Positions 1,644-36,172 of a DNA stretch of 64,000 bases are shown one piece after another (the stretch's first letter is position 1; each line of letters begins with the position of its first letter). The stretch lies in NCBI GenBank assembly GCA_964356125.1, contig CAYHHH010000002.1:12755-76754 (forward strand). Direction: 5' to 3'. Origin of the DNA: an uncultured Bifidobacteriaceae bacterium (GTDB lineage: Bacteria > Acidobacteriota > Vicinamibacteria > Vicinamibacterales > JAMQPK01). The translations under genes were made by a program, and so were the position numbers. The notes under the pieces were generated by a model. That model was not told where the DNA came from, did no database searches, and saw only the letters and a list, made by a program, of their open reading frames with translations.

Positions 1644-1708
1644 GTCAGGTCCCTTAAATTATCGATAACTTGGGTGAGCGGCGAGTATAGGATCGTCTCG
1701 CCCGGTAA

Positions 1709-1725
1709 GTGAGACATTTTGTGAC
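1709..1725 (+). promoter_or_regulatory. Candidate direct-repeat operator GTGAGAC-ATT-TTGTGAC
   Basis: Two 7-bp half sites with 10-bp phasing, 56 nt upstream of ATG 1782. It resembles the sites at 11344, 24385 and 36099(-). Confidence 0.3.
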
Positions 1726-4179: not shown

Positions 4180-4196
4180 CACGGACGTCGTCCGTG
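4180..4196 (+). terminator. Candidate stem-loop CACGGAC-GTC-GTCCGTG downstream of the PQQ gene
   Basis: Perfect 7-bp stem with a 3-nt loop, 71 nt after the stop at 4109. No clear U-tract follows. Confidence 0.3.
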
Positions 4197-4212
4197 TCCA
4201 AATTTGTCTCAA

Positions 4213-4230: not shown

Positions 4231-4254
4231 GGTATCGTCCGTGCCGATCACCAC

Positions 4255-6178: not shown

Positions 6179-9100
6179 CTAGAAGGTGAACTTCGCCACG
6201 AACTGGATGAACCGTGGAGAAGCGGCTGTCGCGCTCGTGATGCGTCCGAAGTCGGTGCTCGCCGGGTTCAGATTCGGGTTGGCGAACGTCGTCCGATTCG
6301 GGAGGTTGATGATGTCCACGCGGAAGCTGAGCGCACTGCGACCGGGCAGCGTCACCGTTCGCATGAAGTTCATGTTCACCTGCAGGAGGTTCGGCCCCCT
6401 GACCCCATCGATTCGGAACGGGAAGACGCGCTTCTGGAAGTTGGCGGGCACCTTCGCTGGATCGCGCTCGAACCCGGCGTCCACGTTGAACCAGTGCTCG
6501 AGCGTCGGGTCGTCACTCGGGATGTCCTCGAAATCGCCGTAGAAGAAGACGTTACCCCACGCGAGAAGCGGTCCAGGCTGGTATTCGAGCGTGCCGCCGA
6601 CCTGCCAGCCGCCGAGAATCGCGCCAAGAACGCCCGTGCTCGCGAACTTTCGCCCAGGGCCGAACGGCAACTCGGCCAGGCCGTTGGCTGTGACGCGGTG
6701 CGGACGGCCGTTGGCGTTCGGCTGCCAGAGCGTGGGCACGCGGTCGTACTCGTTCAAGAGCTCCAGATTGCGGATCCGGTTGCCCGAGTAGGCAGCGCTC
6801 AGGGCGAAACCCTTGTGGAAACGACGCGTGAGGTTGATCTCCACGCCATGCGTCGTCTGTTTGCCGAGCGGCAGGTTCTGGAACATGAGACCGTTGCCCG
6901 CGCTCATATGCGGGAAGGGCCGCAGCAGCCGGTGCAACTGCACGGTGGTACTCGTGAAGAAGGCGTTACCAGCCATCCGCGCGTAGAGGGCTGGGTTGCT
7001 CGCCTGCAGCGAGGAAAAGCGCGAGAGCAGGAAGGGATTGGGCACATTCGTCTGCAGGAAGTTCTGCTGCGTGAGGTCCCTGACATTATTCCCATTCCAG
7101 TATTGCTCCGGCAGGTAGTCCATGCGGAGTGTCATCGGCAGCCGATCGCCGACCTGGTAGTTGTAGGCAACCTCGATGGCCGTCGTGCCCCACAGCTCGC
7201 GCTGGACGCTGGCTCGATACCGCTGCACGCGCGGGTGCTTACGATCCGGATTGCCGATGTTCACGGCAGCGCCGAGCAACGAGTCGACACCGAGGCTGTC
7301 GCCAACGATCGGGTCATAGCGCGTGCCGTCGGCGCGCAGCGGGAACGGATCGGTTTGCGGAAGAATCCCGACGGCGGGATTCCCGAGCGCCCAGGTCTGT
7401 CCGAAGTCGTTGCTCGTCACGCGCGTGCTCGTTGCGCTATAGCCGGTCGTGAGCGGCGTGTAATTGGCCGCGTTCAGCGTGTCGTAGAACATGCCGTAGC
7501 CGGCCTTGAGGACCGTCCGGGTGCCGAGCCGGTAGGCGCCCGACAGGCGCGGCATCAACAGCGACTCTCCCTTCCAGGAGCTTCCGTTCGTTCGTGCATC
7601 GCTCGCGAAGATCGGCCCGCCGCGAACCTTGAACGCGCTCGCCGGGAGGTTCGGATTCGGACTCGCCGCGTAGGCCGCTTCGGCCAGCGCCGTGATGGCT
7701 GTCACCGCGTCTGGATCCCAACCGATGATGTCGCGCTGCCCGGTTTCGACGATACCGCTCTCGTACTCGTAGCGAAGGCCGAAGTTGAGCGTCAGGTTTT
7801 GGCCGACCCGCCACGTGTCCTGGCCGTAGACGGAGAAATACGGCGAGTGCAGCTCGGGCGCCACGAAATCGTCGATCGAAAACGACTGCGGCAGGCCGAG
7901 CATGAACGCGGCCCACTCCAGCCCGAGGTTGCCGGCCGGGAACACCGTCGTGTCGTCGGCGGCGCGCGTGTAGATGTTGGTGTAGTTCACCACGCCGGAC
8001 GTGTTGCCCAGGTTCGAGATCTTGCGAGCGTGGCTGCGGTTGTCCGAGCCGAACCGAAGCGTGTGCGCGTTCCTCACGTGTGTGACGTTGATCTGGCCCT
8101 GGATGTTGAGCACCTCCGGATACACGCCAACGTTGCCACCGAAGTCCTGATAGCCCTGAAAGTTCACCGCTGGCATCTGGCAGCCGCCCTGGCGTGCCGA
8201 GCAGAAGTCGTCGACGTACTGCGGCATCCCGAAGTCCGTCGGCTCGTAGCTCTTCATCCCGAGGCGCCGCTCTGAGTCGAGAAACCAGTTCGATGCCGCC
8301 TGCGTGTCGACGACCGTGCCGTTGCCGAAGACCCGCGTCCAGTTGCCCGTGTACGACCAGCTCTTGCGTAGGCGCCATGTCGCATGAAGGCCCTGCGAGA
8401 GCGGATTGGCGTACGTCCAGTCGTCGTCCTCTTCGGTGAAGTAGCTGCCCGCGGCGCGGAAGAAGAGACGGTCCTTTTGCGACAGGTTGAAATCGAGGCG
8501 CGTGCCCCAGACGTGGCTGTGCGTCTGATCGGGCTCGGCCGCGCCGAGGTAATTGTTGGTCGGCGCCAGCCCCGCAGGCGGGTTCTGGTTGGGCGCCGGC
8601 AGGAACTGGGTGTACAGCTTGTAGGCCGGGTTCACGATACGGTCCTGCGGGATGACGTTGTTCGGGAATGGATCACGGATGATGCGGCCGGGCCGGTTCG
8701 GGTCGGGCCGCGCCGTCAGCGGATCGTAGATGCGGTACTGCTGCGGATTTGGCAGCCGCAGGAGATCGGAGAAGTCGCCTCTCAGGTGGGCTTCGGTCGG
8801 AAGCGTGATGGCGCCGGCCTGGATGTTACCGGGGATGAGATCGGCGACGAATGAATAATTCGCGAAGAAGAACATCTTGTTCCGTCCGTCGACCAGTTTC
8901 GGGATCACGACGGGACCGCCGATGGTGTACGACATGTTCGTGGACTTGCCGGACTGGAATACGTTCTTCAATTCGGGATCGCGATCGAGAATGGGCCTCT
9001 GAAAGTGGTTCGCGCCGTTCAGGCGGCTCGTCCACGTTTGATAACCGGCCGTGCCGCTCCATCGGTTGGTGCCCGCCTTGGTCATCATCGCGACGCCGAG

Positions 9101-9805
9101 CCCCGTGCCGTGTCCCACCGACGCATCGAAGTTCGACGTTTCGATTCGCATTTCCTGCAACATGTCGGAATTGGGCGAAGTGGCTATGTTGCGGGCGTTG
9201 CCGGCATTCGTGGCGCCATCGATGGTGTACTCCGCGGCGCCGACGCCGCCGATCGGGCCGGCCTGCGACGATGGGCCGCCGACGAAGCCCTGGGTTGCAA
9301 ACTGTGGCGCCGCACTCGCGGCCACGCCCGAGACGTTGCGGATCAGAAGCAACGGCATGCTCGAGAACGACGGCAGCTCCGTAATCAGACGGTTCTCGAA
9401 ACTGAGCCCCGACGAAACCGCATTCATGTCGAGGAGCACGGCCGCCGCGACCACGTCCACGCGTTCGCTCATATTGCCGACGTCGAGCGTGATGGTGAGC
9501 GAAACCGTCCGGCCGACCGCGACCTGAATGCCGGTCTGCCGGAAGCCTTTGAAATTCGGGAGCTCGACCGAGACTTCGTAGGCGCCAGCGATGAGCAGGG
9601 GAGCCTCGAAGTACCCGCTGCCGTTGGTCGCCAGCTGTTGCGAGACGGTGGTGCCGGTGTTGGTGATCGTCACGTTCGCGCCAGGCAGAACGCCGTCCTT
9701 ATCGCGTACGGTTCCCGAAATCGTTCCGCGCGTCTCCTGCGCGGCCGCACTGCCGGCGATCAGCAGCGCGACCAGCGCGCAAGCGATCGTGAGCCACTTT
9801 CGCAT
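6179..9805 (-). CDS. TonB-dependent outer-membrane receptor with N-terminal carboxypeptidase-regulatory-like domain
   Basis: 1208 aa. Signal peptide MRKWLTIACALVALLIAGSAAAQE, then TRGTISGTVRDKDGVLPGANVTITN (CarboxypepD_reg-like). C-terminal ...FVAKFTF (terminal Phe, typical of OM beta-barrels). Confidence 0.9.
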   Translation of the reverse strand: MRKWLTIACALVALLIAGSAAAQETRGTISGTVRDKDGVLPGANVTITNTGTTVSQQLATNGSGYFEAPLLIAGAYEVSVELPNFKGFRQTGIQVAVGRTVSLTITLDVGNMSERVDVVAAAVLLDMNAVSSGLSFENRLITELPSFSSMPLLLIRNVSGVAASAAPQFATQGFVGGPSSQAGPIGGVGAAEYTIDGATNAGNARNIATSPNSDMLQEMRIETSNFDASVGHGTGLGVAMMTKAGTNRWSGTAGYQTWTSRLNGANHFQRPILDRDPELKNVFQSGKSTNMSYTIGGPVVIPKLVDGRNKMFFFANYSFVADLIPGNIQAGAITLPTEAHLRGDFSDLLRLPNPQQYRIYDPLTARPDPNRPGRIIRDPFPNNVIPQDRIVNPAYKLYTQFLPAPNQNPPAGLAPTNNYLGAAEPDQTHSHVWGTRLDFNLSQKDRLFFRAAGSYFTEEDDDWTYANPLSQGLHATWRLRKSWSYTGNWTRVFGNGTVVDTQAASNWFLDSERRLGMKSYEPTDFGMPQYVDDFCSARQGGCQMPAVNFQGYQDFGGNVGVYPEVLNIQGQINVTHVRNAHTLRFGSDNRSHARKISNLGNTSGVVNYTNIYTRAADDTTVFPAGNLGLEWAAFMLGLPQSFSIDDFVAPELHSPYFSVYGQDTWRVGQNLTLNFGLRYEYESGIVETGQRDIIGWDPDAVTAITALAEAAYAASPNPNLPASAFKVRGGPIFASDARTNGSSWKGESLLMPRLSGAYRLGTRTVLKAGYGMFYDTLNAANYTPLTTGYSATSTRVTSNDFGQTWALGNPAVGILPQTDPFPLRADGTRYDPIVGDSLGVDSLLGAAVNIGNPDRKHPRVQRYRASVQRELWGTTAIEVAYNYQVGDRLPMTLRMDYLPEQYWNGNNVRDLTQQNFLQTNVPNPFLLSRFSSLQASNPALYARMAGNAFFTSTTVQLHRLLRPFPHMSAGNGLMFQNLPLGKQTTHGVEINLTRRFHKGFALSAAYSGNRIRNLELLNEYDRVPTLWQPNANGRPHRVTANGLAELPFGPGRKFASTGVLGAILGGWQVGGTLEYQPGPLLAWGNVFFYGDFEDIPSDDPTLEHWFNVDAGFERDPAKVPANFQKRVFPFRIDGVRGPNLLQVNMNFMRTVTLPGRSALSFRVDIINLPNRTTFANPNLNPASTDFGRITSATAASPRFIQFVAKFTF

Positions 9806-9832
9806 GGTCGGTTCCTCCTCAAGCGACGACGA

Positions 9833-11242
9833 TTACCAGTGCGATAACGAGCCGTCGAGCCGCCTATGTGTCGGCCCTGGCGCGCCCTCGGTCATCTCCT
9901 CGAGGAACGTCAGAACCTTCTCGTCGACGCTGACGCCCAGACCCGGCCGTTCGTTCGGCCACACCTTGCCATTCCTGCACTCGAGGAACTCCGGCATGTA
10001 TGGCACTGGACGGTCGCCCTGGTTGTATTCCATGAGCACCTGACCGGGAAATGCCATCATCGTGTGCATGTGCCCAGCGGTGGCGATGGGGCCCGTGAAA
10101 TGCGGCACGATACCGACCTTGTGCGTATCGCACACCGCCATGATCTTCAGCATCTCGGTGATGCCGCCGGAGTTCGGCATCGACGCGCGTGCGAAATCGA
10201 TGTCGCGCTGCTCGACCAGCGGACTGAAGTCTGCCCTGATGCTCCACTCCTCACCGGGTGCAAGCGGCACGCTGGTGAGCAATCTGAGCTTCGGGATTTG
10301 TGTCCGGAACTGCTCCTCGCGGAGCGGATCCTCGACGCAGAACGGCCGCAGCGGCTCCATAAGCCTGCAGAGCTCGACCGACTCATGGAAATCGAACTTC
10401 TGATGCACGTCGATCATCCAATCGCCGTCGGCGCCGACACCGTCGCGGATCTGCTCGAGCGCCTTGATGATTTGCGGGATTCGCGCTCGTGAATTGAATA
10501 CGGACCCGCCCCGCCCGCCGCCCCGTCCGCCGGCTCGAGCGCCCGCAGCGCCTGGACCCGCTCCAGGGCCCGGGGCCGGTCCACCGGTTCGAGCGCCACC
10601 GGTGCTCGGCAGAATGCCGCCGTCCACGCGGTAGACGCGATAACCGGCAGCCATCGTCGCCGCCGCGCGCTCTTTCAGCCCCATCGCCTGTGCCTCGGCC
10701 GGCGGCACGACGCCCTGTGGGAGTCCGGATGTTGCGTACAACTCGACGTGCTCACGCGCCTTGCCGCCAAACAGCTGATACAGGGGCACGTTGAGCGCCT
10801 TTCCCTTGATGTCCCACAGCGCCAGGTCGATGGCGCCGAGCGCGTGCAGCCGTTCCTTGCCTGGCGAGTAAAAGCCGTCCATGAAGGCCGCCTGCCAGAT
10901 GGCCTCGGTATCGAAGGCATTCTTGCCGATGACGCTTCTGGCGACGTTGCGCACGGTGTCCGGAGAGCCGCCTTGGCCGACTCCCGTGATCCCTGCTTCG
11001 GTGTCCACAAGGACGACCATGTTGCTCTGCGGAAACGCCTGTGGGCCGTTCGCGTTGTAGTTAGGCGGATAGAAGATCCGGATCTTCGTGACCCGGGTGG
11101 GCGACAGGCGGCTGGCAGCCTGTGCGAGCGCGACTGGCATACGAGTCCACTCGGGCCTGTTCCGCAGGACCCATGAACCGGCGACAAGCGATCCTGCCGC
11201 TCCCACAAGCGACTTCGTGAAGGTTCTGCGATCGATGTTCAT
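9833..11242 (-). CDS. Enolase-superfamily (mandelate racemase/sugar-acid dehydratase-like) protein with twin-arginine signal
   Basis: 469 aa. N-terminus MNIDRRTFTKSLVGAAGSLVAGSWV (Tat-like). AIDLALWDIKGKALNVPLYQLFGG is an enolase-superfamily hallmark. A Gly/Arg-rich insert is present. Sits 27 nt upstream of the receptor gene on the same strand. Confidence 0.85.
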   Translation of the reverse strand: MNIDRRTFTKSLVGAAGSLVAGSWVLRNRPEWTRMPVALAQAASRLSPTRVTKIRIFYPPNYNANGPQAFPQSNMVVLVDTEAGITGVGQGGSPDTVRNVARSVIGKNAFDTEAIWQAAFMDGFYSPGKERLHALGAIDLALWDIKGKALNVPLYQLFGGKAREHVELYATSGLPQGVVPPAEAQAMGLKERAAATMAAGYRVYRVDGGILPSTGGARTGGPAPGPGAGPGAAGARAGGRGGGRGGSVFNSRARIPQIIKALEQIRDGVGADGDWMIDVHQKFDFHESVELCRLMEPLRPFCVEDPLREEQFRTQIPKLRLLTSVPLAPGEEWSIRADFSPLVEQRDIDFARASMPNSGGITEMLKIMAVCDTHKVGIVPHFTGPIATAGHMHTMMAFPGQVLMEYNQGDRPVPYMPEFLECRNGKVWPNERPGLGVSVDEKVLTFLEEMTEGAPGPTHRRLDGSLSHW

Positions 11243-11343
11243 AACTATGCTCCTTTAGACAGCGCACGAAGCTGATCAGCATTCCTTTGGAGGCGGCGAT
11301 AATTGACTGTTTGTGGGCATTCTAGCGGCGCATTCCCGGCGAG

Positions 11344-11360
11344 TTGGGACAAGTTGTGAC
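11344..11360 (+). promoter_or_regulatory. Candidate direct-repeat operator TTGGGAC-AAG-TTGTGAC
   Basis: 16/17 identical (19/20 with flank) to the reverse-strand site at 36099-36083. Lies 55 nt upstream of ATG 11416. Confidence 0.45.
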
Positions 11361-11415
11361 ACGCCGCGGCGACGGGTTCTCGCGCGACGGATTCGCGGTA
11401 ATCTCGCGTGACTTT

Positions 11416-13062
11416 ATGAGTTCATTTGGCCGACGCTCGTTCCTCTCCGGCCTGGGCAAGGCCGGGGCAGTGCTCGCCGCCAGTCCGTGGCTCAGCCCGA
11501 TCGGGTACGCACAGGTCAGCAGGGGGCCTGCGCGCGTGTTCCTCCGGCGATCGGCGACGCGCCCCGACTTCGATCGCCGGGTGCTCGGCGCGTTTCTCGA
11601 ACATCTCGGCCGTGCCGTCTACACCGGAGTGTTCGAGCCCGGGTCGCCTCTTGCTGATGCAAGCGGATTTCGCACCGACGTGGCGCGCGAGGTCAAGGAG
11701 CTCGGGGTGCCCGTCGTTCGCTATCCCGGAGGCAACTTCGTCTCCGGATATAACTGGCTCGATGGCGTCGGACCCAAGGCGAATCGTCCCGTGGTGCTCG
11801 AGCGCGCCTGGAATTCGATCGAGACAAACCAGTTCGGCACGAACGAGTTCATCGACTGGTGCCGCGCGGTCGGCACCGAGCCGCTGCTCGGACTCAACTT
11901 CGGTACCGGTACGGCCGAGATGGCGGTCGCTTACGTCGAGTACTGCAATGTGGAGCGCGGCACCAGGTGGAGCGATCTACGCCGCGCACACGGCTACGCC
12001 GAGCCGCACAACGTGCGCTACTGGTGTCTCGGCAACGAGATGGACGGCCCATGGCAGATCGGCCAGATGCAGGCGCGCGAGTACGGACGCAAGGCCCGCG
12101 ACGTCGCGCAGCAGATGCGGGCGATCGACCGCGAACTGAAGCTGCTCGCGTGCGGATCGAGCGGCACGTTCATGCCGACCTATCTGGCGTGGGATCGTGA
12201 AGTGCTCGAAGAGTGCTACGACCAGGTTGACGGCATCTCGCTTCACGCCTATTACGGCAACACGAACGCGTTGACCGGCAACAACACGGCGCGGTACCTG
12301 GCGATGAACCTCGACATGGATCGCCACATTCACGAGACGGCCGCGGTCTGCGACTACGTCCAGGGACTGAAACGGTCGAGCAAACGCCTGTGGCTGTCGT
12401 TCGACGAGTGGAACGTGTGGTACCGCGCGCGCGGCCGGGATGCCACCGACGGCCGCCGCACTGAGGCGCCGAAACTGCTCGAGGAGGTGTACAACCTCGA
12501 GGACGCGCTCCTGGTCGGCGGTCTCATCAACACCCTGCTCCGCAACTCGGACCGCGTGCACGTCGGTTGTCTGGCGCAGCTCGTCAACGTGATTGCGCCG
12601 CTGGTCACCAACTCGAGCGGCGTGCTGCGCCAGAGCACGTACTTCCCGTATGCGTGGGCGCTTCGTTACGCCCGCGGCCGCGTGCTCGATTTCCGCGTGG
12701 AGTCGGAGACCTATCCGATCAGAGCGGCCGGATTACAGGCCGACTTCGCGCGCAACGCAGACGTCCCGTTCGTCGATATCGTCGCCACGCTGGATGAGCA
12801 GAATGGCCAGGCGTGCGTCCTGATGCTCAATCGCGATCTCGACGCGGAACGCGAGGTGGTGCTCGAGTGGGACGACGTCACGCCGGCGCGCGTGCTCGCG
12901 TGCGAGACGTTGACCGGACCAGACCTGAAAGCGTTCAACACGTTCGACGAGCCGCGGCGCGTCGCGCCGCAGCCACTGGCTCCGCCCGCGCCTGGCAGCC
13001 GGATGTCGTTCAGGCTGCCTCCGCGTTCGTACAGCGTCGCGCACCTGAGCCTGAAAGCCTGA
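11416..13062 (+). CDS. abfA: GH51 alpha-L-arabinofuranosidase with Tat-type signal
   Basis: Motifs RYPGGNFVSGYNWLDGVGP, ETNQFGTNEF and WCLGNEMDGPWQIG (GH51 acid/base region). Start moved to the internal ATG 11416, giving MSSFGRRSFLSGLGKAGAVLAASPWL. Confidence 0.85.
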   Translation: MSSFGRRSFLSGLGKAGAVLAASPWLSPIGYAQVSRGPARVFLRRSATRPDFDRRVLGAFLEHLGRAVYTGVFEPGSPLADASGFRTDVAREVKELGVPVVRYPGGNFVSGYNWLDGVGPKANRPVVLERAWNSIETNQFGTNEFIDWCRAVGTEPLLGLNFGTGTAEMAVAYVEYCNVERGTRWSDLRRAHGYAEPHNVRYWCLGNEMDGPWQIGQMQAREYGRKARDVAQQMRAIDRELKLLACGSSGTFMPTYLAWDREVLEECYDQVDGISLHAYYGNTNALTGNNTARYLAMNLDMDRHIHETAAVCDYVQGLKRSSKRLWLSFDEWNVWYRARGRDATDGRRTEAPKLLEEVYNLEDALLVGGLINTLLRNSDRVHVGCLAQLVNVIAPLVTNSSGVLRQSTYFPYAWALRYARGRVLDFRVESETYPIRAAGLQADFARNADVPFVDIVATLDEQNGQACVLMLNRDLDAEREVVLEWDDVTPARVLACETLTGPDLKAFNTFDEPRRVAPQPLAPPAPGSRMSFRLPPRSYSVAHLSLKA

Positions 13063-18785: not shown

Positions 18786-20834
18786 TTACGGCACCGGACG
18801 CGCGCGTTCCAGCCACGCCGTATCGCGATCGGCGTGACACGCGAGACAGGCGTTCGGACTCTGGTCCAACCCGAAGCGCTCGGTCATGGCGGCGTCGGGA
18901 ATGTCGTCGATCTCGTGCGTCCGCGCTGGAAACAACAGCGCGTCCATGATTCGCGGCATATGGCATGAGACGCAACGGCTGGCCTCGGTGCCAGGCAAGT
19001 GACGCGCATGGCGGGCGCGATCGTCGGCGAGCGCCGAATGGCACTGCGTACACATGTCGTTCGCATCAGCCGCGAATTTCAGAGAGGCCGGATTCGAGGC
19101 AGCGTTCGATGGATGGACGTCGTGACAGGACGCACACGTCGCTCCGCCTTCCTTGAAACAGCGCGACCGCGTGAACGCCTCGACGATGAACGTCGTCGCC
19201 CGGTGCCGTCCGTCGCGATAGAACGCGCGCCGCGTGAAATCCGACATCAGGTGGCGGGAATACGAACGATAGAAGTGCCCGCCCTCCTCGGAGTAATTCG
19301 CCGCGCCGCGCGGTTGCGCATCGTGCACGGCCGACTGCGCATGACACTGCGCACAGACGGCCACCGATTCGGCCGCCGTCAGGCGCGAAAAATACAGGGG
19401 CGTCATGCTGGCCGCCGGGCTATACTTCCGCGATCCCTGCATCGACTCGACGTGCCGGCGTGAGGGTCCGTGACACATTTCGCAGTTGATCCCGGGCTCC
19501 AGAAACGTTCCGGTGGCGGGGCGATCGATCCCCGATGAAAACTTCAATTGGCTCGTATGGCAGGGTGCGCACGCGCTTTGAGAGATCGCACCTGGCGGAC
19601 GCGTGTGGAACCGTGACACGTTCGCCCGTGCGCTGCCGGGCGCGTCGGTCAGCTTCCAGTAATTCAACCACTGCGAGTGAACGCGGCTGTACTGGATTGG
19701 AAACACGAGAATCGTATCGTCTGGAAGGCGCGTCGCATACGCCTGCTGCCACTTCGATCCGATGAGGTAGTCAACGGCATAGCGAATCCATTCGCCGGTG
19801 TCCCCGTTGCGGATCTCGATGAAGTGACGGCCGCGCTCCACGAGAGGACGAGCATCGCTGGGGATGCCGGTTCTCGCGGAGAAATCTCCGATCACGTCGG
19901 CTGCGCGATACGGACGAAACATTTTCGCCATGCCGGTTGCTTGCCAGTTCGCGTATTGCCTGGCGTGGCATTGATTGCACGCCGTCGATCCTGCGTACGT
20001 TTCTGCAGCATCGGCCCCGGACGCCCCCGTCGCCGCACGCGACGCGGGCGTATGCGCGGGAAACGGTTGCGTCCATACAAAGGAGGCTGCGTACTCGTCG
20101 AAGCTGAGGTGCGGCGCGTTCGTTCGGCGTCCGTACAGCTCCTGGAGCGCGGAGCGTGCGAAACGGGACCACGGTCCGTTTGACCTGAATACGTGGGCCA
20201 GCGCCGCGCCCGCTCCCCGGTCATCTTTCAGCGCCGCTCGAACCAACCCCAACATGTAAACGCTTTCCATGTCTTCAAGGTTTGTCTGAAGCGCCGTGAG
20301 CAGAAGGGCCTCAGCGTCGCGATACCCGCCGCGAGCAGCGGCGACTCTCCCCAGTGCGAGGCGGGCAGTGGCCAGGAGCTGGTCGCGCATCCTCGGCCAC
20401 TCGGCGGGCGGCACCTGTGTGGGTGGAACGCTGTGGGTCAGAAGCCGAAGCACGTCCTCGGCACTGCGAGAAGCCAGGTCGCGATCGGAGCGCCTGGCGG
20501 CAAGATCCGCCACCATTGCCGACAGGAACGGATTCTCCGGCATGAGGCGAAGCGACCGTTGTGCCCATACCAGAGCGGCGTCCACATCGCCCGCTGCGGC
20601 CGAGCCGCGTGCGGCGACTTCATAGACGTCCCTCAAGACAATCGATCGCGGAAACGACTCGACGAAACGGATCGACAGCGATCGCTGCGTGGCCGGATCG
20701 CGGTGTTCCCAAAGCTCACGGAACGCTGCCCGCTCCCGTGCATCTTCAATTTCATCGAGGACCGTCGGTGTGCCGGGCTGCTGAGCCGACGCCAAGCCAG
20801 CCGTCAGCACAATCGCCGGCAGCCACCATCTCAT
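18786..20834 (-). CDS. Exported TPR-domain + octaheme c-type cytochrome
   Basis: 682 aa with signal MRWWLPAIVLTAGLASAQQ. Eight CxxCH motifs: CNQCH, CAPCH, CEMCH, CAQCH, CASCH, CTQCH, CVSCH, CLACH. Helical TPR-like N-terminal third. Confidence 0.85.
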   Translation of the reverse strand: MRWWLPAIVLTAGLASAQQPGTPTVLDEIEDARERAAFRELWEHRDPATQRSLSIRFVESFPRSIVLRDVYEVAARGSAAAGDVDAALVWAQRSLRLMPENPFLSAMVADLAARRSDRDLASRSAEDVLRLLTHSVPPTQVPPAEWPRMRDQLLATARLALGRVAAARGGYRDAEALLLTALQTNLEDMESVYMLGLVRAALKDDRGAGAALAHVFRSNGPWSRFARSALQELYGRRTNAPHLSFDEYAASFVWTQPFPAHTPASRAATGASGADAAETYAGSTACNQCHARQYANWQATGMAKMFRPYRAADVIGDFSARTGIPSDARPLVERGRHFIEIRNGDTGEWIRYAVDYLIGSKWQQAYATRLPDDTILVFPIQYSRVHSQWLNYWKLTDAPGSARANVSRFHTRPPGAISQSACAPCHTSQLKFSSGIDRPATGTFLEPGINCEMCHGPSRRHVESMQGSRKYSPAASMTPLYFSRLTAAESVAVCAQCHAQSAVHDAQPRGAANYSEEGGHFYRSYSRHLMSDFTRRAFYRDGRHRATTFIVEAFTRSRCFKEGGATCASCHDVHPSNAASNPASLKFAADANDMCTQCHSALADDRARHARHLPGTEASRCVSCHMPRIMDALLFPARTHEIDDIPDAAMTERFGLDQSPNACLACHADRDTAWLERARPVP

Positions 20835-20839
20835 CGCTC

Positions 20840-23800
20840 TTAGAAAATCACTCGAACCCCGAGTCGAAGGTTTCGTTCGTCGTATTCGCGGCCAGGATTT
20901 GCGGTGAAAGTAATCTGCCCGAAATCGATGGCGTTGACGTTCGTGCCAGGATTGGTCCAGTGCGGCGTGTTCGTCACGTTCAGAGCCTCAAGGCGAACCT
21001 GGACCGAGACGGACCGTGAGAACCGGAACGTCCGAAACAGACTGGCGTCGAGGTTGGCGTATCCGGGCCCACGGTATCCATTCGCTTTGGATGTGCCGAA
21101 GCGCGCCGCAGTGACGGCGGCAAACGACGTCGTATCGAACCAGGGTCTGCCGGGTCCAACTCCGCCCAGCACGTTGAACGCCTTGACTTCGTCGGCGCGC
21201 TGGGCGCTGCCCGGTGCGTTCAACGAAGCTCCGCTGGCGGTCATGGTCATGGTCGAACCGCTGAAGGCCGTGAAATACGCGTTGAGCTGCCAGCCTCCGA
21301 CAATAGCGGCGGCTGCACCGTCGGTCAGATAGCGCTTGCCTGCGCCGAAGGGCAATTCATACGAGGCTGAGAGGTCCAGCTTGTTCGGAGACACGGTAGA
21401 AGCCGGACCCTCATTGAGATATCGGTACTCCGGGATCAGGATGCCTGTGGCCCACGCGTCTGTCCCTTTTGCCCTCGCGTACGCGGCAGTGAAGGCCAAC
21501 CCCTCGGAGAAGCGGCGGTTCACACTCACTTGAAGTGAGTCATAGTCGACCCTTCCGAGGGGATCGAGGAAGTTGAAGTTCGCGGTCGTGCCGAGGGCCC
21601 GGAAGAACGGCTGACTGGCGGCACCGCCACCAATAGTCCCATAGTTGCGATTCGTCGAACGGACCATGTCGCGCTGGCGGTTCCCCGCGTATCCGACCTG
21701 GACGCTCATATTTCTGGAGAACGACTTCTGCGCGGTCACGTTGAACCCCGTGATGGTTCCCCGAATGTAATTGTCGGGGGCCGTCGTGACCCCTGCGCCA
21801 GCTGGCAAGGCCAGCGAACCGGAGCTGTAATCTGGAATGGGCGAGACGCGATAGCCGGTCTCCAGCGTGCCTGCCGGCTGAAACGAGTTCAGGCCAGCCT
21901 GATTGATCGTGATGGACGCGGGATAGGTGTAGGTCGCACCGCGGTACATGTGGTCGTTCTGCGGATTCCGCGAGTATCCGGCGCGGATGACGAAGGATTC
22001 GAATGGACGGTATGCGATGCCCAGACGAGGGGTGAACAGATCCTTCTGAACCCCCACGCCGCACGTGTCGCTGTTGCCGGCGACGCCGCACATCAGCACG
22101 CGGTTGGTCGCGAGGTCGAAATGCTCGACACCACGGTCTGCCCGAACCGGCACCGGGTAGTATTCCCACCGCAGACCGAACGAGGCGGTCAGTTTCTGCC
22201 CAATCTGCCACTGGTCGCGCACGTAGAAACCCATTTCGCGCTCGCGCATCGTCACGGGCCGTTCAGGTGCACAGTTGTCGGCAACGACGCATGGCGGCAC
22301 CTGGGCGTTGCTCATGTTGCCCCCGATCTGCCCCAGCAGGAAGTCGGCCAATGCGTTATACGAATTCGCCGCCGGGCCTCCATTCAGCGAGGTCGCGATT
22401 CCGGTGAATGACATGGAGGTCAGCGGACTGATCTCGTAGTGATTCATGTGCTGCCAGTGAAAGTCGCCGCCGAACTTCACGTTGTGGTTGCCCCTGGTCC
22501 AGCCAAGGTTGGCAACCATCTGGTACTGACCGTCGTTATAGTCGAGGACCGAGGAGCTGAACCCGTTGTTCCCGAGCGGCTGAGTGCCGCCCGACGTGCC
22601 GCCCCGCGATGTAAATCCGGTGATCTCCATCTGGGGCAGCGCCCAGTCCCTGGCCTGGCAGGCGTTCGGAATGCCCATGAGATCCGCCCAGCACTGTTGC
22701 ACCCCATTGGGTTGCTGATAGGTGTGTGGTGTTGTCGCTCCACCCACCACATCCATCACGAGGTTGGGAGTCAGCGTCATCGTCGCTGCCAGTGAATAGC
22801 TGAAGATCTTGGCGTTGAGATCGGTGCCCAGACTCAAGGGATTGTCGTCGCCGTAGAGGCCCGCGGAATTCATATCGTCGTGCAGGCCGCTGATCCGCGC
22901 GTTGACGTTGAGACGGTTCGTCGGCGCCCACGTGATCTTCGAATCAATCTTGTAGAAGAGCGACGTGAACGGTGGCGTCGACACGTAGTTATTGACGTTG
23001 CCTGCCGTTTGGGGCGCCGGCAGATAGGCCAGCAGGCGCTGCGCCACCGGGCTGAGGCGGTTCGAGGGAATGAAATTGCACCCCGCGAACCTGGGATCGC
23101 TGGTGGACGTCACGCCGGGGCAGTTCGCGAAGGCAAACGGCGTCCGGCCGGTGCCGTTCGGGTTGCCTGTCAACGGGTCATAGATCGCGACACCGGTGCT
23201 GGAAAAGTTTCCAGTCCTGAACTCCGTCGGGGGCAGCGAGAGCAGCAGAGCGGACGATCCGACGAAGGGCCCGCCAACCGCCCTCGAATCCGTCGTCTCG
23301 AGACTGAAGAAGTAGAAAAGCTTATTCGGTTTGATCGGCCCCCCGATCGTGCCCCCGTAGATGTTTTTTGTCCCCTTCGGCTTCTCGCTGGTGGCCGGCA
23401 GAAAGTAATTCCTCGAGCGGAGGTTCGCGTGCTCGAAGTATTCGAATGCCGAACCGCGCAGCGAATTCGTGCCGCTCTTGACCTGCACGTTCACGGCGGC
23501 GCCACCGGCCATTCCCTGGTCGGCCTCAAAGTTGCTCGTCACGATGTTCACGGTTTCGATCGCTTCGATGGCGGGGCTATACGCCTGAAGGAACGGAATC
23601 CACTGATTGGTTATCGACATGCCGTCGAGGCGGAAGGCCGTATTCGTATTCGGTTGCCCGTTCACCGACACACTCATCGACCGTGACGGGTTGTTGATGC
23701 CACCGGTCTGGAAATACGACGGCTGCGCGACACCGGGAGTGAGCGCCAGCAGGCTCTGGTAGCTCCGGCCGTTAATCGGGAGATTCTCGAGTGCCTGTGC

Positions 23801-24250
23801 CGTTGTCACCGACTGCAACGCCGCGCTGTCGGCTTGCAGGATCGCCGCCTGGCCCGTCACCACAACGGATTCTTCGAGGGTTCCCACCGCGAGCCTCGCA
23901 TCGACGCGGACGATGGCGCCAATGTTGACGGTGATGTCACGGCTCGAAAATGTCCGGAAGCCGGGCAACGTCACGACAACGTCATAGGTGCCCGGCGAGA
24001 GATTGGGAAAGGAATAGGCGCCATTCACCGGTGTCGTCTGGTCGCGCGTCTGATTCGTTTCCCTCTGCGTGATGGTGACCGTGGCTCCCGGGACGATCGC
24101 TCCGGTTTCGTCCAGCACGTTGCCCACCAAGGATCCGTACAACGCCTGTGCGCTGGCGTTGGCGGCGGAGAAGACCATTAATCCTGCGACCAGTGCATGG
24201 CCAAGCCAGGCCCAGCAACCTGTCGATGCGGTGATGTGACGGGTCATCAT
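20840..24250 (-). CDS. TonB-dependent outer-membrane receptor with N-terminal carboxypeptidase-regulatory-like domain
   Basis: 1136 aa. ...SAANASAQALYGSLVGNVLDETGAIVPGATVTITQRETN. C-terminal ...LGVRVIF. SD GGAGGAG upstream. Confidence 0.9.
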   Translation of the reverse strand: MMTRHITASTGCWAWLGHALVAGLMVFSAANASAQALYGSLVGNVLDETGAIVPGATVTITQRETNQTRDQTTPVNGAYSFPNLSPGTYDVVVTLPGFRTFSSRDITVNIGAIVRVDARLAVGTLEESVVVTGQAAILQADSAALQSVTTAQALENLPINGRSYQSLLALTPGVAQPSYFQTGGINNPSRSMSVSVNGQPNTNTAFRLDGMSITNQWIPFLQAYSPAIEAIETVNIVTSNFEADQGMAGGAAVNVQVKSGTNSLRGSAFEYFEHANLRSRNYFLPATSEKPKGTKNIYGGTIGGPIKPNKLFYFFSLETTDSRAVGGPFVGSSALLLSLPPTEFRTGNFSSTGVAIYDPLTGNPNGTGRTPFAFANCPGVTSTSDPRFAGCNFIPSNRLSPVAQRLLAYLPAPQTAGNVNNYVSTPPFTSLFYKIDSKITWAPTNRLNVNARISGLHDDMNSAGLYGDDNPLSLGTDLNAKIFSYSLAATMTLTPNLVMDVVGGATTPHTYQQPNGVQQCWADLMGIPNACQARDWALPQMEITGFTSRGGTSGGTQPLGNNGFSSSVLDYNDGQYQMVANLGWTRGNHNVKFGGDFHWQHMNHYEISPLTSMSFTGIATSLNGGPAANSYNALADFLLGQIGGNMSNAQVPPCVVADNCAPERPVTMREREMGFYVRDQWQIGQKLTASFGLRWEYYPVPVRADRGVEHFDLATNRVLMCGVAGNSDTCGVGVQKDLFTPRLGIAYRPFESFVIRAGYSRNPQNDHMYRGATYTYPASITINQAGLNSFQPAGTLETGYRVSPIPDYSSGSLALPAGAGVTTAPDNYIRGTITGFNVTAQKSFSRNMSVQVGYAGNRQRDMVRSTNRNYGTIGGGAASQPFFRALGTTANFNFLDPLGRVDYDSLQVSVNRRFSEGLAFTAAYARAKGTDAWATGILIPEYRYLNEGPASTVSPNKLDLSASYELPFGAGKRYLTDGAAAAIVGGWQLNAYFTAFSGSTMTMTASGASLNAPGSAQRADEVKAFNVLGGVGPGRPWFDTTSFAAVTAARFGTSKANGYRGPGYANLDASLFRTFRFSRSVSVQVRLEALNVTNTPHWTNPGTNVNAIDFGQITFTANPGREYDERNLRLGVRVIF

Positions 24251-24384
24251 CTCCTCCTGTCCTTCCTGACGAGGGTTGCGTCAACGCGGCGAACGGACCG
24301 GCCGTCGTTAGGCGTCGTCGGTTTTATATCATGAAACTATGTTGTGTGCGGTGCACACTATAACCGCAGTCACACCCCTCGAAG

Positions 24385-24401
24385 TTGTGACAAATTGTGA
24401 C
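24385..24401 (+). promoter_or_regulatory. Candidate direct-repeat operator TTGTGAC-AAA-TTGTGAC
   Basis: Perfect 7-bp direct repeat with 10-bp phasing, 81 nt upstream of ATG 24483. Confidence 0.4.
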
Positions 24402-24407: not shown

Positions 24408-24424
24408 CTATCGATTATCGATAG
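24408..24424. promoter_or_regulatory. Perfect 17-bp palindrome CTATCGAT-T-ATCGATAG
   Basis: Checked base by base. Contains the 12-mer TATCGATTATCG that also occurs at 4259-4270. Lies in the divergent region between receptor 24250(-) and gene 24483(+). Confidence 0.4.
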
Positions 24425-24482: not shown

Positions 24483-25643
24483 ATGACCCTTGCGAGATCG
24501 CTCGGCGTTGGAACCATGCTGGTACTCGCAGCGGGTTGGCTATCAGCCCAGACCCATCCCTCGCACCAAATCACGAATGGCGACCTCACCGCGACGGTCT
24601 ATCTGCCCGACGCACAGAACGGCTTCTACACGACGACGCGATTCGACTGGTCGGGCGCGATCGGAATCCTCAAGTACAAGGGCCATGAGTACTATGGAAT
24701 CTGGTGGTCGAAGATCACCGATATCTACGACTTCGGATACGAAGGGCCGAACAAGGATGTCCTCTCCGCCGACTTCACGGCGATGGTCGGCCCCGCCGAG
24801 GAGTTCGGCGCGCTCGGGTATACCGACGTTCCGGCAGGTGGACTCTTCGTCAAACCGGGAGTCGGCGCGCTGAAGCGCGACGAGATGAACTACAACCATT
24901 CGCGCACGTACGTGATTGCGAACGGCGGAACGTGGGACGTCAAGCGGTCGCGCGACGCAGTGGAGTTCACACACACGTTGAGCGAGCCGTCGATCAACTT
25001 CGGATACGTCTATACGAAGGTCGTGCGCCTCACGCCAGGCAAGCCGCAGATGACGATCGCGCACGTCATGAAGAACACCGGCTCGAAGCCGATCGTGACC
25101 AACGTGTACAACCACAACTTTACGACCATCGACAAACAGCCGACCGGGCCCGACATCGAGATCGCCGTGCCGTGGCAGATGACGCGCGCCGCCGGACGCG
25201 GCGGTCGGGGCCCCGCGACTCCGCTTGGGGCAGGCGGACCGGCGGCGCCCGCCCCGCCCGCCCGGCAAGGCCCGCCGCCGGCAGATCCGTACGCGCCGCT
25301 GGCGGCCGGCGAGCGCATGGGCACGCAGTGCGGCCAGCCGCAGATGCAAACGCTGGCCAGCCCGCAGGGCAACACGCTCGTGTACTCCAAGGTGCTCGAG
25401 GGCTCGGAGTGTTACCAGGCCGGCTTCACCGGCTTCGGCGCGGCGCCGACGGACAACGACATCCGCATCGAGAACAAGCGGACAGGCGCCGGCGTTCGCA
25501 TCACTGGCGATCGGCCCGTGACGCGGTTCGGGTACTGGTCGATCCGGACAGTGGTGGCGCCCGAGCCGTACATCGACCTCAACATCGAGCCGGGCCAGCA
25601 GTTCGCCTGGACGTATACGTACGACTACTACACAACGAAGTAG
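24483..25643 (+). CDS. Exported hypothetical protein (no family recognised)
   Basis: Start trimmed to ATG 24483 (GGAGGA 9 nt upstream), giving MTLARSLGVGTMLVLAAGWLSAQ. Coding-like composition. Contains a Gly/Arg/Pro insert. 9 nt upstream of the next gene. Confidence 0.7.
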   Translation: MTLARSLGVGTMLVLAAGWLSAQTHPSHQITNGDLTATVYLPDAQNGFYTTTRFDWSGAIGILKYKGHEYYGIWWSKITDIYDFGYEGPNKDVLSADFTAMVGPAEEFGALGYTDVPAGGLFVKPGVGALKRDEMNYNHSRTYVIANGGTWDVKRSRDAVEFTHTLSEPSINFGYVYTKVVRLTPGKPQMTIAHVMKNTGSKPIVTNVYNHNFTTIDKQPTGPDIEIAVPWQMTRAAGRGGRGPATPLGAGGPAAPAPPARQGPPPADPYAPLAAGERMGTQCGQPQMQTLASPQGNTLVYSKVLEGSECYQAGFTGFGAAPTDNDIRIENKRTGAGVRITGDRPVTRFGYWSIRTVVAPEPYIDLNIEPGQQFAWTYTYDYYTTK

Positions 25644-25652
25644 ACAAAGATC

Positions 25653-36021: not shown

Positions 36022-36082
36022 TCAGGGTTCCGAGCACTTGTGCCACTCGTGGATGCTGGTGTCAAGGGATAGGCTCTCCCGT

Positions 36083-36099: not shown

Positions 36100-36172
36100 T
36101 TTCCGCAGTAATGCCTCGCTACAGTACTTCGTATTGACTCAACAGTTGCAGTGTTTCCTGGAGGGAGGACGC

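Follow-up and report, generated by a model that had tools for sequence, protein, structure and literature searches.

The window, by which we mean the whole 64,000-nt stretch of DNA that was analysed, comes from a soil MAG of the Vicinamibacterales (Acidobacteriota) and holds a sugar-utilization gene cluster. It carries on its minus strand an operon of three genes encoding a TAXI-family solute-binding protein, a histidine kinase (HK) and a response regulator (RR). A TonB-dependent receptor gene is transcribed away from this TAXI-HK-RR operon, and further receptor, glycoside hydrolase and PQQ dehydrogenase genes belong to the same picture:

35053..36021, minus strand: TAXI-family solute-binding protein with a lipoprotein-type signal (Pfam NMT1_3)
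33383..35056, minus strand: sensor histidine kinase (HisKA and HATPase_c)
32695..33381, minus strand: OmpR/PhoB-family response regulator (Response_reg and Trans_reg_C), candidate binder of the box described below
36176..39565, plus strand: TonB-dependent receptor (CarboxypepD_reg and OMP_b-brl_4), in all orthologous loci divergently paired with the TAXI operon
6179..11242, minus strand: predicted target operon of box s1, with an MR_MLE sugar-acid dehydratase-like gene (9833-11242) and a TonB-dependent receptor (6179-9805)
11416..13062, plus strand: GH51 alpha-L-arabinofuranosidase with a Tat-type signal, first gene of an operon running to about 18774
18786..24250, minus strand: predicted target operon of box s3, with a TonB-dependent receptor (20840-24250) and a multihaem cytochrome/TPR protein (18786-20834)
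24483..27602, plus strand: conserved hypothetical gene (24483-25643, hyp24483) and cytochrome c-PQQ dehydrogenase (25653-27602)

The TAXI protein scores 187.5 bits against TIGR02122 (cut-off 84.35), and its lipobox cysteine, Cys22, is invariant. Neither the scanned window ORFs nor the gene tables for orthologous loci include a TRAP membrane subunit (DctQ/DctM); the kinase gene comes next instead, its start overlapping the TAXI stop codon (ATGA). The kinase has two predicted transmembrane segments around a periplasmic region of ~270 aa that has no Pfam match. Kinase and regulator genes are 1 nt apart, and the synteny is kept in all orthologous loci. The regulator matches Response_reg with 97.9 bits and Trans_reg_C with 80.8 bits (cut-off 26.2). 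Its EDD, LLD and TKPF motifs align with E. coli PhoB, and thus the acidic pocket, the phospho-acceptor Asp and the Lys are present; its recognition helix is TTRSVDRAVSRLRQKI. The protein falls below the cut-off of every named equivalog, with 177.4 bits against 296.2 for PhoB (TIGR02154), 168 against 270 for the Bacteroidota PhoB model and 197.7 against 300 for MtrA (NF040689), the second-best named match; this last score excludes orthology with MtrA. It is indeed the sole OmpR-type regulator among the scanned window ORFs, as an earlier, sequence-only reading of this DNA had stated, and an IclR-family regulator is encoded in the window as well. The hypothetical protein hyp24483 has no Pfam, NCBIfam or PDB sequence match.

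Between these genes lies a recurrent element of ~20 bp, composed of two tandem 10-bp units, nTTGnGACAA followed by nTTGYGACA. Five sites were located in the window:

11344..11360, plus strand: box s1, TTGGGAC-AAG-TTGTGAC, 31.9 bits, exact match; between the MR_MLE dehydratase/receptor operon (minus) and the GH51 operon (plus)
36083..36099, minus strand: box s2, TTGGGAC-AAG-TTGCGAC, 33.8 bits, exact match; between the TAXI-HK-RR operon (minus) and TonB-dependent receptor 36176 (plus)
24385..24401, plus strand: box s3, TTGTGAC-AAA-TTGTGAC, 31.9 bits, exact match; between the receptor/multihaem cytochrome operon (minus) and the hyp24483-PQQ/cytochrome c genes (plus)
1709..1725, plus strand: box s4, GTGAGAC-ATT-TTGTGAC, 28.7 bits; between a 3-keto-disaccharide-hydrolase/FG-GAP gene (minus) and PQQ dehydrogenase 1782 (plus)
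4196..4212, minus strand: box s5, TTGAGAC-AAA-TTTGGAC (TTGAGACAAATTTGGAC), 24.1 bits, newly found; upstream of a small ORF (4297-4473) and a lactate-permease-family gene (4555-6174)

Scores refer to a weight matrix of 21 columns built from 14 window and orthologous sequences, with the four strong window sites s1-s4 among these training sequences and s5 outside them. Scanned across the window, the matrix returns the five sites at 24-34 bits and nothing else above 12.3 bits. All five are intergenic, in a window of which only ~3% is intergenic (P ~2e-8); this is the outcome, for the window, of the comparison of intergenic with coding matches that had been proposed. The core pattern TTGKGAC-N3-TTGYGAC (TTGKGACNNNTTGYGAC) occurs in three exact copies in the 64,000 nt, compared with none in 100 dinucleotide shuffles; s4 departs from it at two positions. 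The arrangement of 7-bp repeats with a 3-bp spacer is found at 5/5 window sites and at all orthologous sites. The letters of the four strong sites reported by the sequence-only reading, 11344-11360(+), 36083-36099(-), 24385-24401(+) and 1709-1725(+), are exactly as given there, as are the 19/20 identity between the 11344 and 36083 sites with the ACG flank and the distances of 55, 61, 81 and 56 nt from motif to start codon of the four genes named. Its site list needed revision beyond these: the weak site at 59228-59244, before receptor 59309, scores <10 bits with the matrix and is rejected, and the site at 4196-4212(-) had been overlooked.

The pattern is internally repetitive, and an unrestricted metagenome scan gives many unrelated low-GC tandem-repeat matches, so that one could take the box for a chance similarity or for a fragment of some mobile element or dispersed repeat. 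The scan with TTGNGACAANTTGNGAC returned at least 120 stretches, nearly all of them unrelated low-GC tandem repeats or chance matches, with three contigs of at least 67% GC among the matches listed. This explanation is effectively refuted by the empty shuffles, by the clear gap between the five sites and all else in the matrix scan, by the exclusively intergenic position of the sites, and by an invariant box in genomes whose flanking intergenic sequence has diverged. Moreover, beyond ~21 bp the flanks of the window sites are unrelated to one another, as they would not be if the sites were copies of a dispersed repeat. Taken together, the observations support the motif as a genuine conserved cis-regulatory element.

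Conservation was followed in orthologous TAXI-HK-RR loci of Vicinamibacterales MAGs, whose TAXI proteins are 59-76% identical. The box stands upstream of TAXI in 14/14 of them (31.9-36.8 bits), the result of the conservation check that had been suggested for these operons, and in an alignment of 13 orthologous intergenic regions, which separate the TAXI-HK-RR operon from the divergent TonB-dependent receptor gene, no other invariant non-coding block is as long. Sites, conservation and fixed geometry are established from the sequence. Other targets (GH51, hyp24483-PQQ, PQQ 1782, keto-hydrolase, receptors, cupin) retain it in most genomes although the gene order has been reshuffled (L009, L024, L146-L150); in L145, L151 and L152 it is lost or degraded at these other targets, and the regulator-adjacent site is always kept. 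Counterparts of individual window sites include an identical site with the same flanks for s1 (L149), homologous flanks with the box for s3 (L009, L146, L147 and L148) and, for s4, a homologous site in L024 at 14794 and a decayed copy with a 4-bp insertion in L152. Outside these regions, ~0.6 Mb of related sequence is almost free of the box. A search for homologues of the regulator gave, among the 120 matches listed, only close orthologues at least 68% identical.

A paralogous system with two TAXI genes (TAXI-TAXI-HK-RR) has the box in 5/6 loci, between the system and its own divergent receptor gene; at the sixth, in L018, there is no box within 21 kb. The paralogous regulator is ~60% identical to the one in the window, and its recognition helix (TTRSVDHAIVRLRKKI) is near-identical to TTRSVDRAVSRLRQKI. 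At least five genomes hold both regulators, with practically one and the same box. A TTGTCGC sequence at the paralogous loci was considered as a paralogue-specific half-site and rejected, because it is the same box read on the other strand.

Every window site lies in a divergent intergenic region (5/5), and the following promoter elements are predicted around them:

36120..36125, plus strand: predicted -10 TACAGT of the receptor 36176 promoter, 20 nt from s2, no -35 match
11319..11324, minus strand: predicted -10 TAGAAT of the MR_MLE/receptor operon, 19 nt from s1
24357..24362, minus strand: predicted -10 TATAGT of receptor 20840-24250, 22 nt from s3
1684..1689, minus strand: predicted -10 TATACT of the 3-keto-disaccharide-hydrolase gene, 19 nt from s4
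4233..4238, plus strand: predicted extended -10 TGgTATCGT of the small ORF/lactate-permease genes, 20 nt from s5
36037..36065, minus strand: predicted TAXI operon promoter, TTGACA (36065-36060), 17 nt, TGg-CACAAG (36042-36037)
11399..11404, plus strand: predicted -10 TAATCT of the GH51 promoter, 38 nt downstream of s1, kept in L149
24440..24448, plus strand: predicted extended -10 TGtTACCAT of the hyp24483 promoter, 41 nt downstream of s3

At all five window sites a TAnnnT -10 without a -35 occurs on the strand opposite to the motif, at 19-22 nt from it (P ~4e-8, for a distance window chosen post hoc). The regions orthologous to that of s2 have TAAAAT, TAGAAT, TACAAT or TAAGAT at the same distance in 12/12. 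The geometry is not seen everywhere, L009 and L147/L148 having boxes with no TAnnnT at 19-22 nt. By inspection, the -35 of these promoters matches at 1-2 of 6 positions. On its other side the box has a -10 that is 38-41 nt away or, at the TAXI promoter, an invariant TTGACA as the -35, with s2 lying 17 nt upstream of it and centred at about -61; CTTGACA and TGG.A.A before TAXI are invariant in 13 genomes. The hyp24483 -10 is kept as TGtTACCCT, TGtTACCAT or TGcTACCAT in L009, L146-148 and L152. From the GH51 -10 one would expect a very short leader, in keeping with the lack of a Shine-Dalgarno sequence. PQQ 1782 has no convincing promoter at standard distance from its box. In L150, as an exception, the box lies ~41 nt upstream of a full TTGACA-N18-TATAGT promoter.

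Because the sites lie in divergent regions with a -10 on the opposite strand, the box would also sit at about -41 of the divergent promoters, and at about -61 of three of the four genes named earlier. The claim that the sites face their downstream gene needs revision, since the clearest promoters (TAnnnT at 19-22 nt, no -35) run the opposite way. With these opposite-facing promoters the predicted regulon takes in three TonB-dependent receptor operons, the sugar-acid dehydratase, the 3-keto-disaccharide-hydrolase-like gene, and the small ORF with the lactate-permease-family gene.

Half-sites that start with TTG, like a -35, and that keep a fixed spacing to a -10-like hexamer might be read as part of the promoter itself, an unusual -35 or UP-like element for a housekeeping or alternative sigma factor. 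We regard this as very improbable: in one orientation TTGnGA would stand 23 nt or more from the -10, the box occurs in either orientation and at two widely differing distances, and 17 nt downstream of it the TAXI promoter has an invariant TTGACA of its own. Furthermore, no sigma-factor gene is linked to the sites, and most window promoters have no box, among them those of the IclR, MFS and PQQ 52443 genes and of receptor 59309, where the matrix finds none; the box is thus no general element of promoters. The conserved TGGCAC (TGGCACAAGAG) before TAXI was also considered as a sigma-54 promoter (TGGCAC-N5-TTGC, with GG and GC exactly 10 nt apart) and rejected: there is no GC at the required spacing, and a 2-nt indel separates genomes with CACAAG from those with CACACAAG. 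No sigma-54 activator was found in the window. An RNA element was likewise rejected, as Rfam gave no family match anywhere in the window; lying upstream of the predicted -10 and -35, the box is not transcribed from the nearby promoters.

A second, independent cis-element accompanies the box:

24410..24422, no strand assigned: palindrome ATCGATTATCGAT, between box s3 and the hyp24483 -10

The window has related copies of the palindrome at 4253-4272 and 1657-1670. A conserved palindrome at the same promoters points to at least one further regulator acting there.

Which protein, then, recognizes the box? OmpR/PhoB regulators are well known to bind tandem repeats whose period is 10-11 bp, and the 10-bp geometry fits dimers of this type, as the sequence-only reading had proposed. 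Since the box is kept before the two-component operon in every related genome examined, it is most likely the binding site of that regulator, and autoregulation by the local OmpR-type protein appears the best candidate explanation of the 14/14 conservation. The proposal of a regulon of the local regulator draws support from the conserved box, the geometry and the 14/14 loci; against it stands the same box at the paralogous TAXI-TAXI-HK-RR system (5/6 loci), for which reason the box cannot be assigned to the window regulator alone. Either the shared box is not specific to the window regulator, or a third protein binds it.

Such a third protein would be a different, unlinked factor, for instance a catabolic or global regulator of glycan-oxidation and receptor genes, with TAXI-HK-RR as one target or as the mere neighbour of the true target, the receptor. 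All sites being in divergent regions, control need not be exerted on the side of the regulator operon; indeed, because the TAXI operon and the divergent receptor gene always share the box, a receptor-dedicated factor would look the same as autoregulation. One box serving two paralogous sensory systems, the boxes of L146-L148 with no regulator within 10 kb on either side, the presence of other factors at these promoters that the palindrome implies, and the IclR regulator in the window all favour an unlinked factor. We nevertheless think it unlikely. Factors of the IclR, LacI, GntR and TetR types use palindromes, and tandem 10-bp direct repeats would be atypical for them; the locus gene tables contain no other regulator gene conserved near the sites; and the box is universally conserved only beside an OmpR-type regulator gene (14/14 orthologous and 5/6 paralogous loci).

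We therefore return to the local regulator. From co-localization and geometry, and with a probability of about 0.6, we infer that the box is the operator of the phosphorylated 32695-33381 regulator, which would activate both promoters of the divergent pairs; binder identity, activation as the direction of control, transcription start sites and signal are all part of this inference. An orphan TAXI lipoprotein, the kinase whose gene overlaps the TAXI stop codon and the regulator would form a three-gene sensory module. A head-to-tail dimer of the phosphorylated regulator would occupy the two 10-bp units, and a close paralogue, encoded elsewhere in related genomes, probably uses the same box as well. 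A single dimer would serve both promoters of a divergent pair. On the near side, with the box ending 19-22 nt from TAnnnT and no -35, it would be centred at about -41, a class-II, pho-box-like activator position, and would drive the three receptor operons, the dehydratase, the 3-keto-disaccharide-hydrolase-like gene and the small ORF with its lactate-permease-family neighbour. On the far side, 38-41 nt from the -10, it would be centred at about -61, a class-I position, and drive GH51, the hyp24483-PQQ dehydrogenase pair and TAXI-HK-RR itself, the last amounting to positive autoregulation. At orthologue-type sites the nearest -10 is faced in one box orientation, and at paralogue-type sites in the opposite one (22 nt), an arrangement not usually seen with a polar head-to-tail dimer. 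As for the signal, the TAXI protein probably senses a carboxylate or sugar acid.

The same regulator might bind the box and mainly repress, occluding the -35 of the divergent promoters, with phosphorylation or the signal relieving or imposing repression. OmpR-family proteins do repress at some promoters, the box overlaps or abuts the -35 position where the -10 is 19-22 nt away, and the TAXI promoter with its perfect TTGACA could fire unaided. However, a good -10 with essentially no -35, as at the promoters with the box at -41, is a hallmark of activator dependence seen in PhoB targets, and at three promoters the box lies at about -61, too far upstream to occlude RNA polymerase; repression as the main mode thus seems distinctly improbable.

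Activation by the local regulator can be set beside several known systems. One is PhoB and the pho box of E. coli, in which an OmpR/PhoB-family regulator encoded with its kinase likewise binds tandem, roughly heptameric half-sites at or abutting the -35 position of promoters with a good -10 and no -35, and acts at its own operon by positive autoregulation, as predicted here. The pho box half-site is CTGTCATAA; our sites on the transcribed strand read TTGTCnCAA. Unlike the present box with its 10-bp period, the pho box is an 18-bp CTGTCATAWAWCTGTCAY with an 11-bp period before phosphate-acquisition genes, whereas our targets (receptors, GH51, PQQ dehydrogenases and others) include no phosphate genes. 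With 19-22 nt between its end and the -10, our box lies farther upstream than a pho box, by about one helical turn; the regulator is under the PhoB equivalog cut-off and has a different recognition helix; and a TAXI binding protein, not PstSCAB/PhoU, is the sensor part. OmpR at ompF and ompC binds 10-bp tandem units head-to-tail, and in the CRP paradigm class II sites lie near -41 and class I sites near -61, with one site able to serve divergent promoters. Our sites are predicted near the same positions and in divergent regions; these positions derive from predicted -10 boxes, and each promoter has one two-unit site in place of the arrays of three or four bound by OmpR.

MtrA is another OmpR-family regulator; in Mycobacterium it recognizes GTCACAgcg as direct repeats (PMC4285127), in Streptomyces GTnACC-n5-GTnACn (PMC13189361). 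Our half-site, reverse-complemented to GTCACAA or GTCGCAA, resembles these boxes, but the spacer is 3 nt (10-bp period) as opposed to 5-6 nt, the targets are catabolic and uptake genes instead of cell-cycle and envelope genes, and an MtrB/LpqB-type partner is missing here. Kinases that sense via a periplasmic solute-binding protein are exemplified by TorT-TorS, LuxP-LuxQ, ChvE-VirA and BctC-BctDE (PMC8050422), a review that does not mention TAXI proteins as kinase partners. In these systems, as here, where the two are translationally coupled, the binding-protein gene adjoins the kinase gene and no cognate transporter is adjacent; the difference is that our binding protein belongs to the TAXI family and that conserved gene order is what suggests its interaction with the kinase. 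Bacteroidota polysaccharide utilization loci (PULs) with hybrid two-component systems also place a sensory system beside genes for TonB-dependent receptors and glycoside-degrading enzymes, the predicted objects of its control in our locus, and their regulator sites are direct repeats as well (compare PMC3878776). Unlike them, our locus has no SusD partner, hybrid kinase or AraC-type output domain; its receptors are of the acidobacterial CarboxypepD_reg/OMP_b-brl_4 kind and its enzymes are largely periplasmic PQQ dehydrogenases.

Our literature search found no described regulon for Acidobacteria or Vicinamibacter and no coupling of TAXI proteins to kinases. Vicinamibacterales are among the most abundant soil Acidobacteriota and are almost uncultured; to our knowledge, almost nothing is known about their gene regulation. 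The analysis provides a conserved operator, a predicted promoter architecture (TAnnnT -10, extended -10, -35-less), a candidate sensor-regulator pair and a defined set of predicted targets: TonB-dependent receptors, GH51, PQQ dehydrogenases, 3-keto-disaccharide-hydrolase-like proteins and a sugar-acid dehydratase. It thereby offers a testable hypothesis and a handle for annotating similar MAG loci. As a regulon prediction it is solid and of an ordinary kind; an OmpR-type dimer on tandem repeats and autoregulation are textbook, so the conceptual advance is modest. More tentatively, and with the odds somewhat against it, the TAXI lipoprotein without a transporter partner may be a ligand-binding co-receptor of the kinase, and the two paralogous modules may share one DNA code and jointly run a PUL-like programme of TonB-dependent receptors and periplasmic PQQ-dependent glycoside and sugar oxidation in Vicinamibacterales. 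If this were true, TAXI would be a binding-protein family without prior documentation in kinase signalling, and the shared box would represent the first cis-regulatory logic for carbon acquisition in this soil lineage.

A direct repeat of the general form TTGKGAC-N3-TTGYGAC, a candidate operator referred to here as the box, occurs at five sites in the window:

1709-1725, forward strand: box s4, between divergent genes 1643 and 1782
4196-4212, reverse strand: box s5 (TTGAGACAAATTTGGAC), new, ahead of a 58-codon ORF and the gene of a lactate-permease-family protein
11344-11360, forward strand: box s1, between divergent genes 11242 and 11416
24385-24401, forward strand: box s3, between divergent genes 24250 and 24483
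36083-36099, reverse strand: box s2, between divergent genes 36021 and 36176

The four strong sites carry exactly the sequences that the sequence-only reading had given for them; its weak site at 59228 scores below 10 bits by weight matrix and was dropped, and site 4196 was added. That all sites lie between divergent genes had gone unnoted. The pattern TTGKGACNNNTTGYGAC is matched exactly three times in the 64-kb window and never in 100 dinucleotide-preserving shuffles, and the 1709 site departs from it at two positions. A weight matrix of 21 columns, trained on window and orthologous sites, yields five window matches at 24-34 bits (next best 12.3); the four strong sites belong to the training set, so their scores are not independent, and the fifth lies outside it. 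All five sites are intergenic, in a window that is only about 3% intergenic (P about 2e-8), and their flanks are unrelated from one site to another. The Rfam families searched across the window gave no match.

Pfam and NCBIfam annotation, together with related loci, assigns the window to a Vicinamibacterales (Acidobacteriota) MAG, in which the region forms a PUL-like cluster with four TonB-dependent receptors (TBDRs; CarboxypepD_reg/OMP_b-brl_4 type), several PQQ dehydrogenases, part of them with cytochrome c domains, three 3-keto-disaccharide-hydrolase/FG-GAP proteins, a Tat-exported GH51 enzyme, enolase-superfamily sugar-acid dehydratases, a gluconolactonase-like protein, cupins, MFS/LctP permeases and an IclR regulator. 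The hypothetical protein hyp24483 (24483-25643; 386 aa) keeps 76-89% identity in over 100 metagenomic clusters and adjoins a cytochrome c-PQQ dehydrogenase in every case; it is a conserved partner of that enzyme, and Pfam, NCBIfam and PDB sequence searches returned no match for it. After the 58-codon ORF stops and before the lactate-permease-family gene starts lies a very stable hairpin (4475-4548; -47.8 kcal/mol, z = -6.7), made of GCTGGTA-type heptamer repeats plus their complement and without a T-run after it. It might serve as an attenuator or as a stabiliser of the mRNA, or be a REP-like element.

Three genes form a single operon, TAXI-HK-RR:

35053-36021: TAXI solute-binding protein
33383-35056: histidine kinase
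32695-33381: OmpR-type response regulator

The TAXI protein has a lipoprotein signal with an invariant Cys22, the stop codon of its gene and the kinase start codon overlap as ATGA, no TRAP membrane subunit turned up nearby, and the kinase periplasmic region of about 270 aa has no Pfam match. These features point to a putative binding-protein-dependent sensor; the TAXI family is not among the known kinase partners listed in a review (PMC8050422). The regulator falls below the cut-off of every named NCBIfam equivalog (RpaB 199/330, MtrA 198/300, PhoB 177/296). A metallo-beta-lactamase-fold gene (31589-32596) is linked to the module in all loci, mostly downstream of the regulator and in four loci (L006, L008, L011, L013; around 12680-13680) between kinase and regulator, and may be a functional part of it.

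Conservation of the box is strongest beside this operon. Searching a genome collection with a TAXI alignment brought up 13 orthologous loci in Vicinamibacterales MAGs, in which identity to the window proteins is 59-76% for TAXI, 68-80% for the kinase and 82-92% for the regulator; a JGI contig brought the number to 14. The sequence-only reading had proposed looking for the box upstream of orthologous operons, and it is there in 14 of 14 loci (31.9-36.8 bits), in the interval that separates TAXI from an orthologous, divergently transcribed receptor gene. When 13 of these intergenic regions are aligned, A.TTG.GACAA.TTGCGAC is the longest invariant block; further conserved islands are the receptor-gene Shine-Dalgarno and start codon, an ATTTTA-type -10 on the receptor strand, CTTGACA, and TGG.A.A right before the TAXI ATG. 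One genome has a second, weaker box-like element (L153 9871-9891; TTGTGAC-CTA-TTACGAC, 13.7 bits) some 45 bp away from the main box, towards the receptor gene.

A paralogous TAXI-TAXI-kinase-regulator module, whose regulator is about 60% identical to that of the window, was found in six more loci, five of them from genomes that also have the orthologous system. The same box lies between the module and its own divergent receptor gene in five of the six, turned the other way relative to the TAXI genes than at the orthologous loci and perhaps with a weak third unit; the sixth (L018) lacks a divergent receptor gene and shows no box within 21 kb. Window regulator and paralogue have almost the same recognition helix (TTRSVDRAVSRLRQKI in the former, TTRSVDHAIVRLRKKI in the latter), which, with the shared box, favours a connection of the box with this clade of regulators. 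Since the box also accompanies the paralogous module, it is not assignable to one paralogue alone.

For the promoters, sites were oriented as TTGnGAC-N3-TTGnGAC and all TAnnnT hexamers up to 90 nt away to either side were listed. On the opposite strand, a TAnnnT stands 19-22 nt from the box 5' end at all five window sites (TATACT, TATCGT, TAGAAT, TATAGT, TACAGT) and in 12 of 12 orthologous TAXI/receptor regions; the chance of five out of five is about 4e-8 at an intergenic frequency of 0.0086 per position, a generous figure because the spacing range was picked post hoc. At the -35 position just 1-2 of 6 bases agree with TTGACA, so the box covers about -33 to -50 of predicted -35-less divergent promoters, a class-II, pho-box-like arrangement. 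Exceptions are the paralogue-type sites, with TATAGT 22 nt downstream in forward orientation, L150, where a full TTGACA-N18-TATAGT promoter follows the box at about 41 nt, and L009 and L147/148, which lack TAnnnT at 19-22 nt. The main rival explanation is that an unlinked factor acts at the receptor-side promoters; we regard it as rather unlikely.

On the other side of the box, TAATCT lies 38 nt away at GH51, TGtTACCAT 41 nt away at hyp24483 (conserved in L009, L146-148 and L152), and at TAXI an invariant TTGACA 17 nt away is followed after 17 nt by TGg-CACAAG. These distances would place the box near -61 of the predicted GH51, hyp24483 and TAXI promoters, a class-I position. For PQQ1782, a PQQ dehydrogenase gene, no convincing promoter turned up at a standard distance; its orthologues in L009 and L147/148 lie within operons on the opposite side of a box. 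The GH51 -10 position implies a very short leader, which fits the absent Shine-Dalgarno. Both GH51 and TAXI (11399-11418, 36019-36042) lack a Shine-Dalgarno, unlike genes 1782, 4297, 24483 and 59309 with their clear GGAGG-type sites, and the predicted -10 only about 12-15 nt before the ATG implies near-leaderless mRNAs. Just before the TAXI start codon, GAGTGGCACAAGAG is conserved in the window (36037-36047) and in orthologous regions, and GGTGGCAAGTAGA occupies the equivalent position in paralogous operons. GAGTGGCACAAGAG resembles a sigma-54 -24 element, but the -12 GC is missing at the right spacing and a 2-nt indel separates genomes; more likely an extended -10 (TGn) is combined here with a weak -10 that has lost its last T.

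The box is not the sole control on these promoters, as a palindrome, ATCGATWATCGAT, is also present: the 544 kb of related sequence hold 12 exact copies, against about 0.02 expected by our estimate, and eight of these are within 60 nt of a box. It lies just downstream of the receptor-side predicted -10, between box and forward -10, or over a -35 position. Copies are at 24410-24422 (between box and forward -10), 4253-4272 and 1657-1670 in the window, and in related loci at L007 9877, L009 18838, L146 8279, L147 8198 and 8281, L151 1154 and L149 9899. Its occurrence without a box in L151 and L149 makes it an independent operator, probably a repressor operator for the same catabolic genes.

The sequences show the sites themselves, how they are conserved and how they are spaced; the binder, the ligand, the start sites and the sign of regulation are inferred. 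In the best-supported model, a phosphorylated dimer of the TAXI-linked OmpR-family regulator, its paralogue or both would bind the two 10-bp units, activating the divergent -35-less promoter from a position near -41 and the promoters of TAXI, GH51 and hyp24483 from one near -61; at TAXI this would be positive autoregulation, and the TAXI lipoprotein would be the kinase's ligand-binding partner. The candidate regulator and autoregulation survive from the sequence-only reading; its orientation and target assignment call for revision, the 19-22-nt promoters driving the divergent genes rather than those it had named. The closest known systems are PhoB with its pho box, the MtrA boxes and OmpR. The pho box shares the logic and a similar TGTC-containing half-site, but has an 11-bp period, lies nearer to the -10 and serves another regulon, and the regulator misses the PhoB equivalog threshold; MtrA boxes are GTCACAgcg direct repeats (PMC4285127, PMC13189361). 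The box works like these systems but belongs to no named regulon among them.

Across related genomes the gene order near the box varies and the attached gene set stays the same:

L009: PQQ1782-keto-hydrolase, box, GH51
L024: box, then hyp24483-PQQ
L146, L147, L148: receptor(-SGL-PQQ), box, GH51-hyp24483-PQQ (L146 28.6 bits; L147/L148 weak, 16.9 bits)
L149: the s1 sequence in an identical copy, and a further site (34.8 bits) next to a receptor gene
L150: box, then a receptor-hyp24483-PQQ operon
L019: box, then the gene for a secreted cupin

Almost no sites occur outside these regions in about 0.6 Mb of related sequence, and receptor gene 59309 has none, so the box is not a general promoter element. 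Three cases lack it or hold it in decayed form: L145, in which the gene stands in a different context without an intact box; L151, with ATCGATWATCGAT only; and L152. L152 shares one 78-kb contig with L153, whose TAXI-side box is intact (36.0 bits). The L152 TBDR/hyp24483 intergenic region (9880-9920) has no box, only a faint remnant, the palindrome-like element (GATTATCGATTATCGA) and extended -10 being still there, and the copy upstream of the PQQ1782 orthologue (3925-3950) has a 4-bp insertion between half-sites that breaks the phasing. From these sequences, the contig looks like regulon shrinkage caught in progress. A site that is constant beside the regulator gene, with targets that depend on the genome, is what one usually sees when a regulator controls its own operon.
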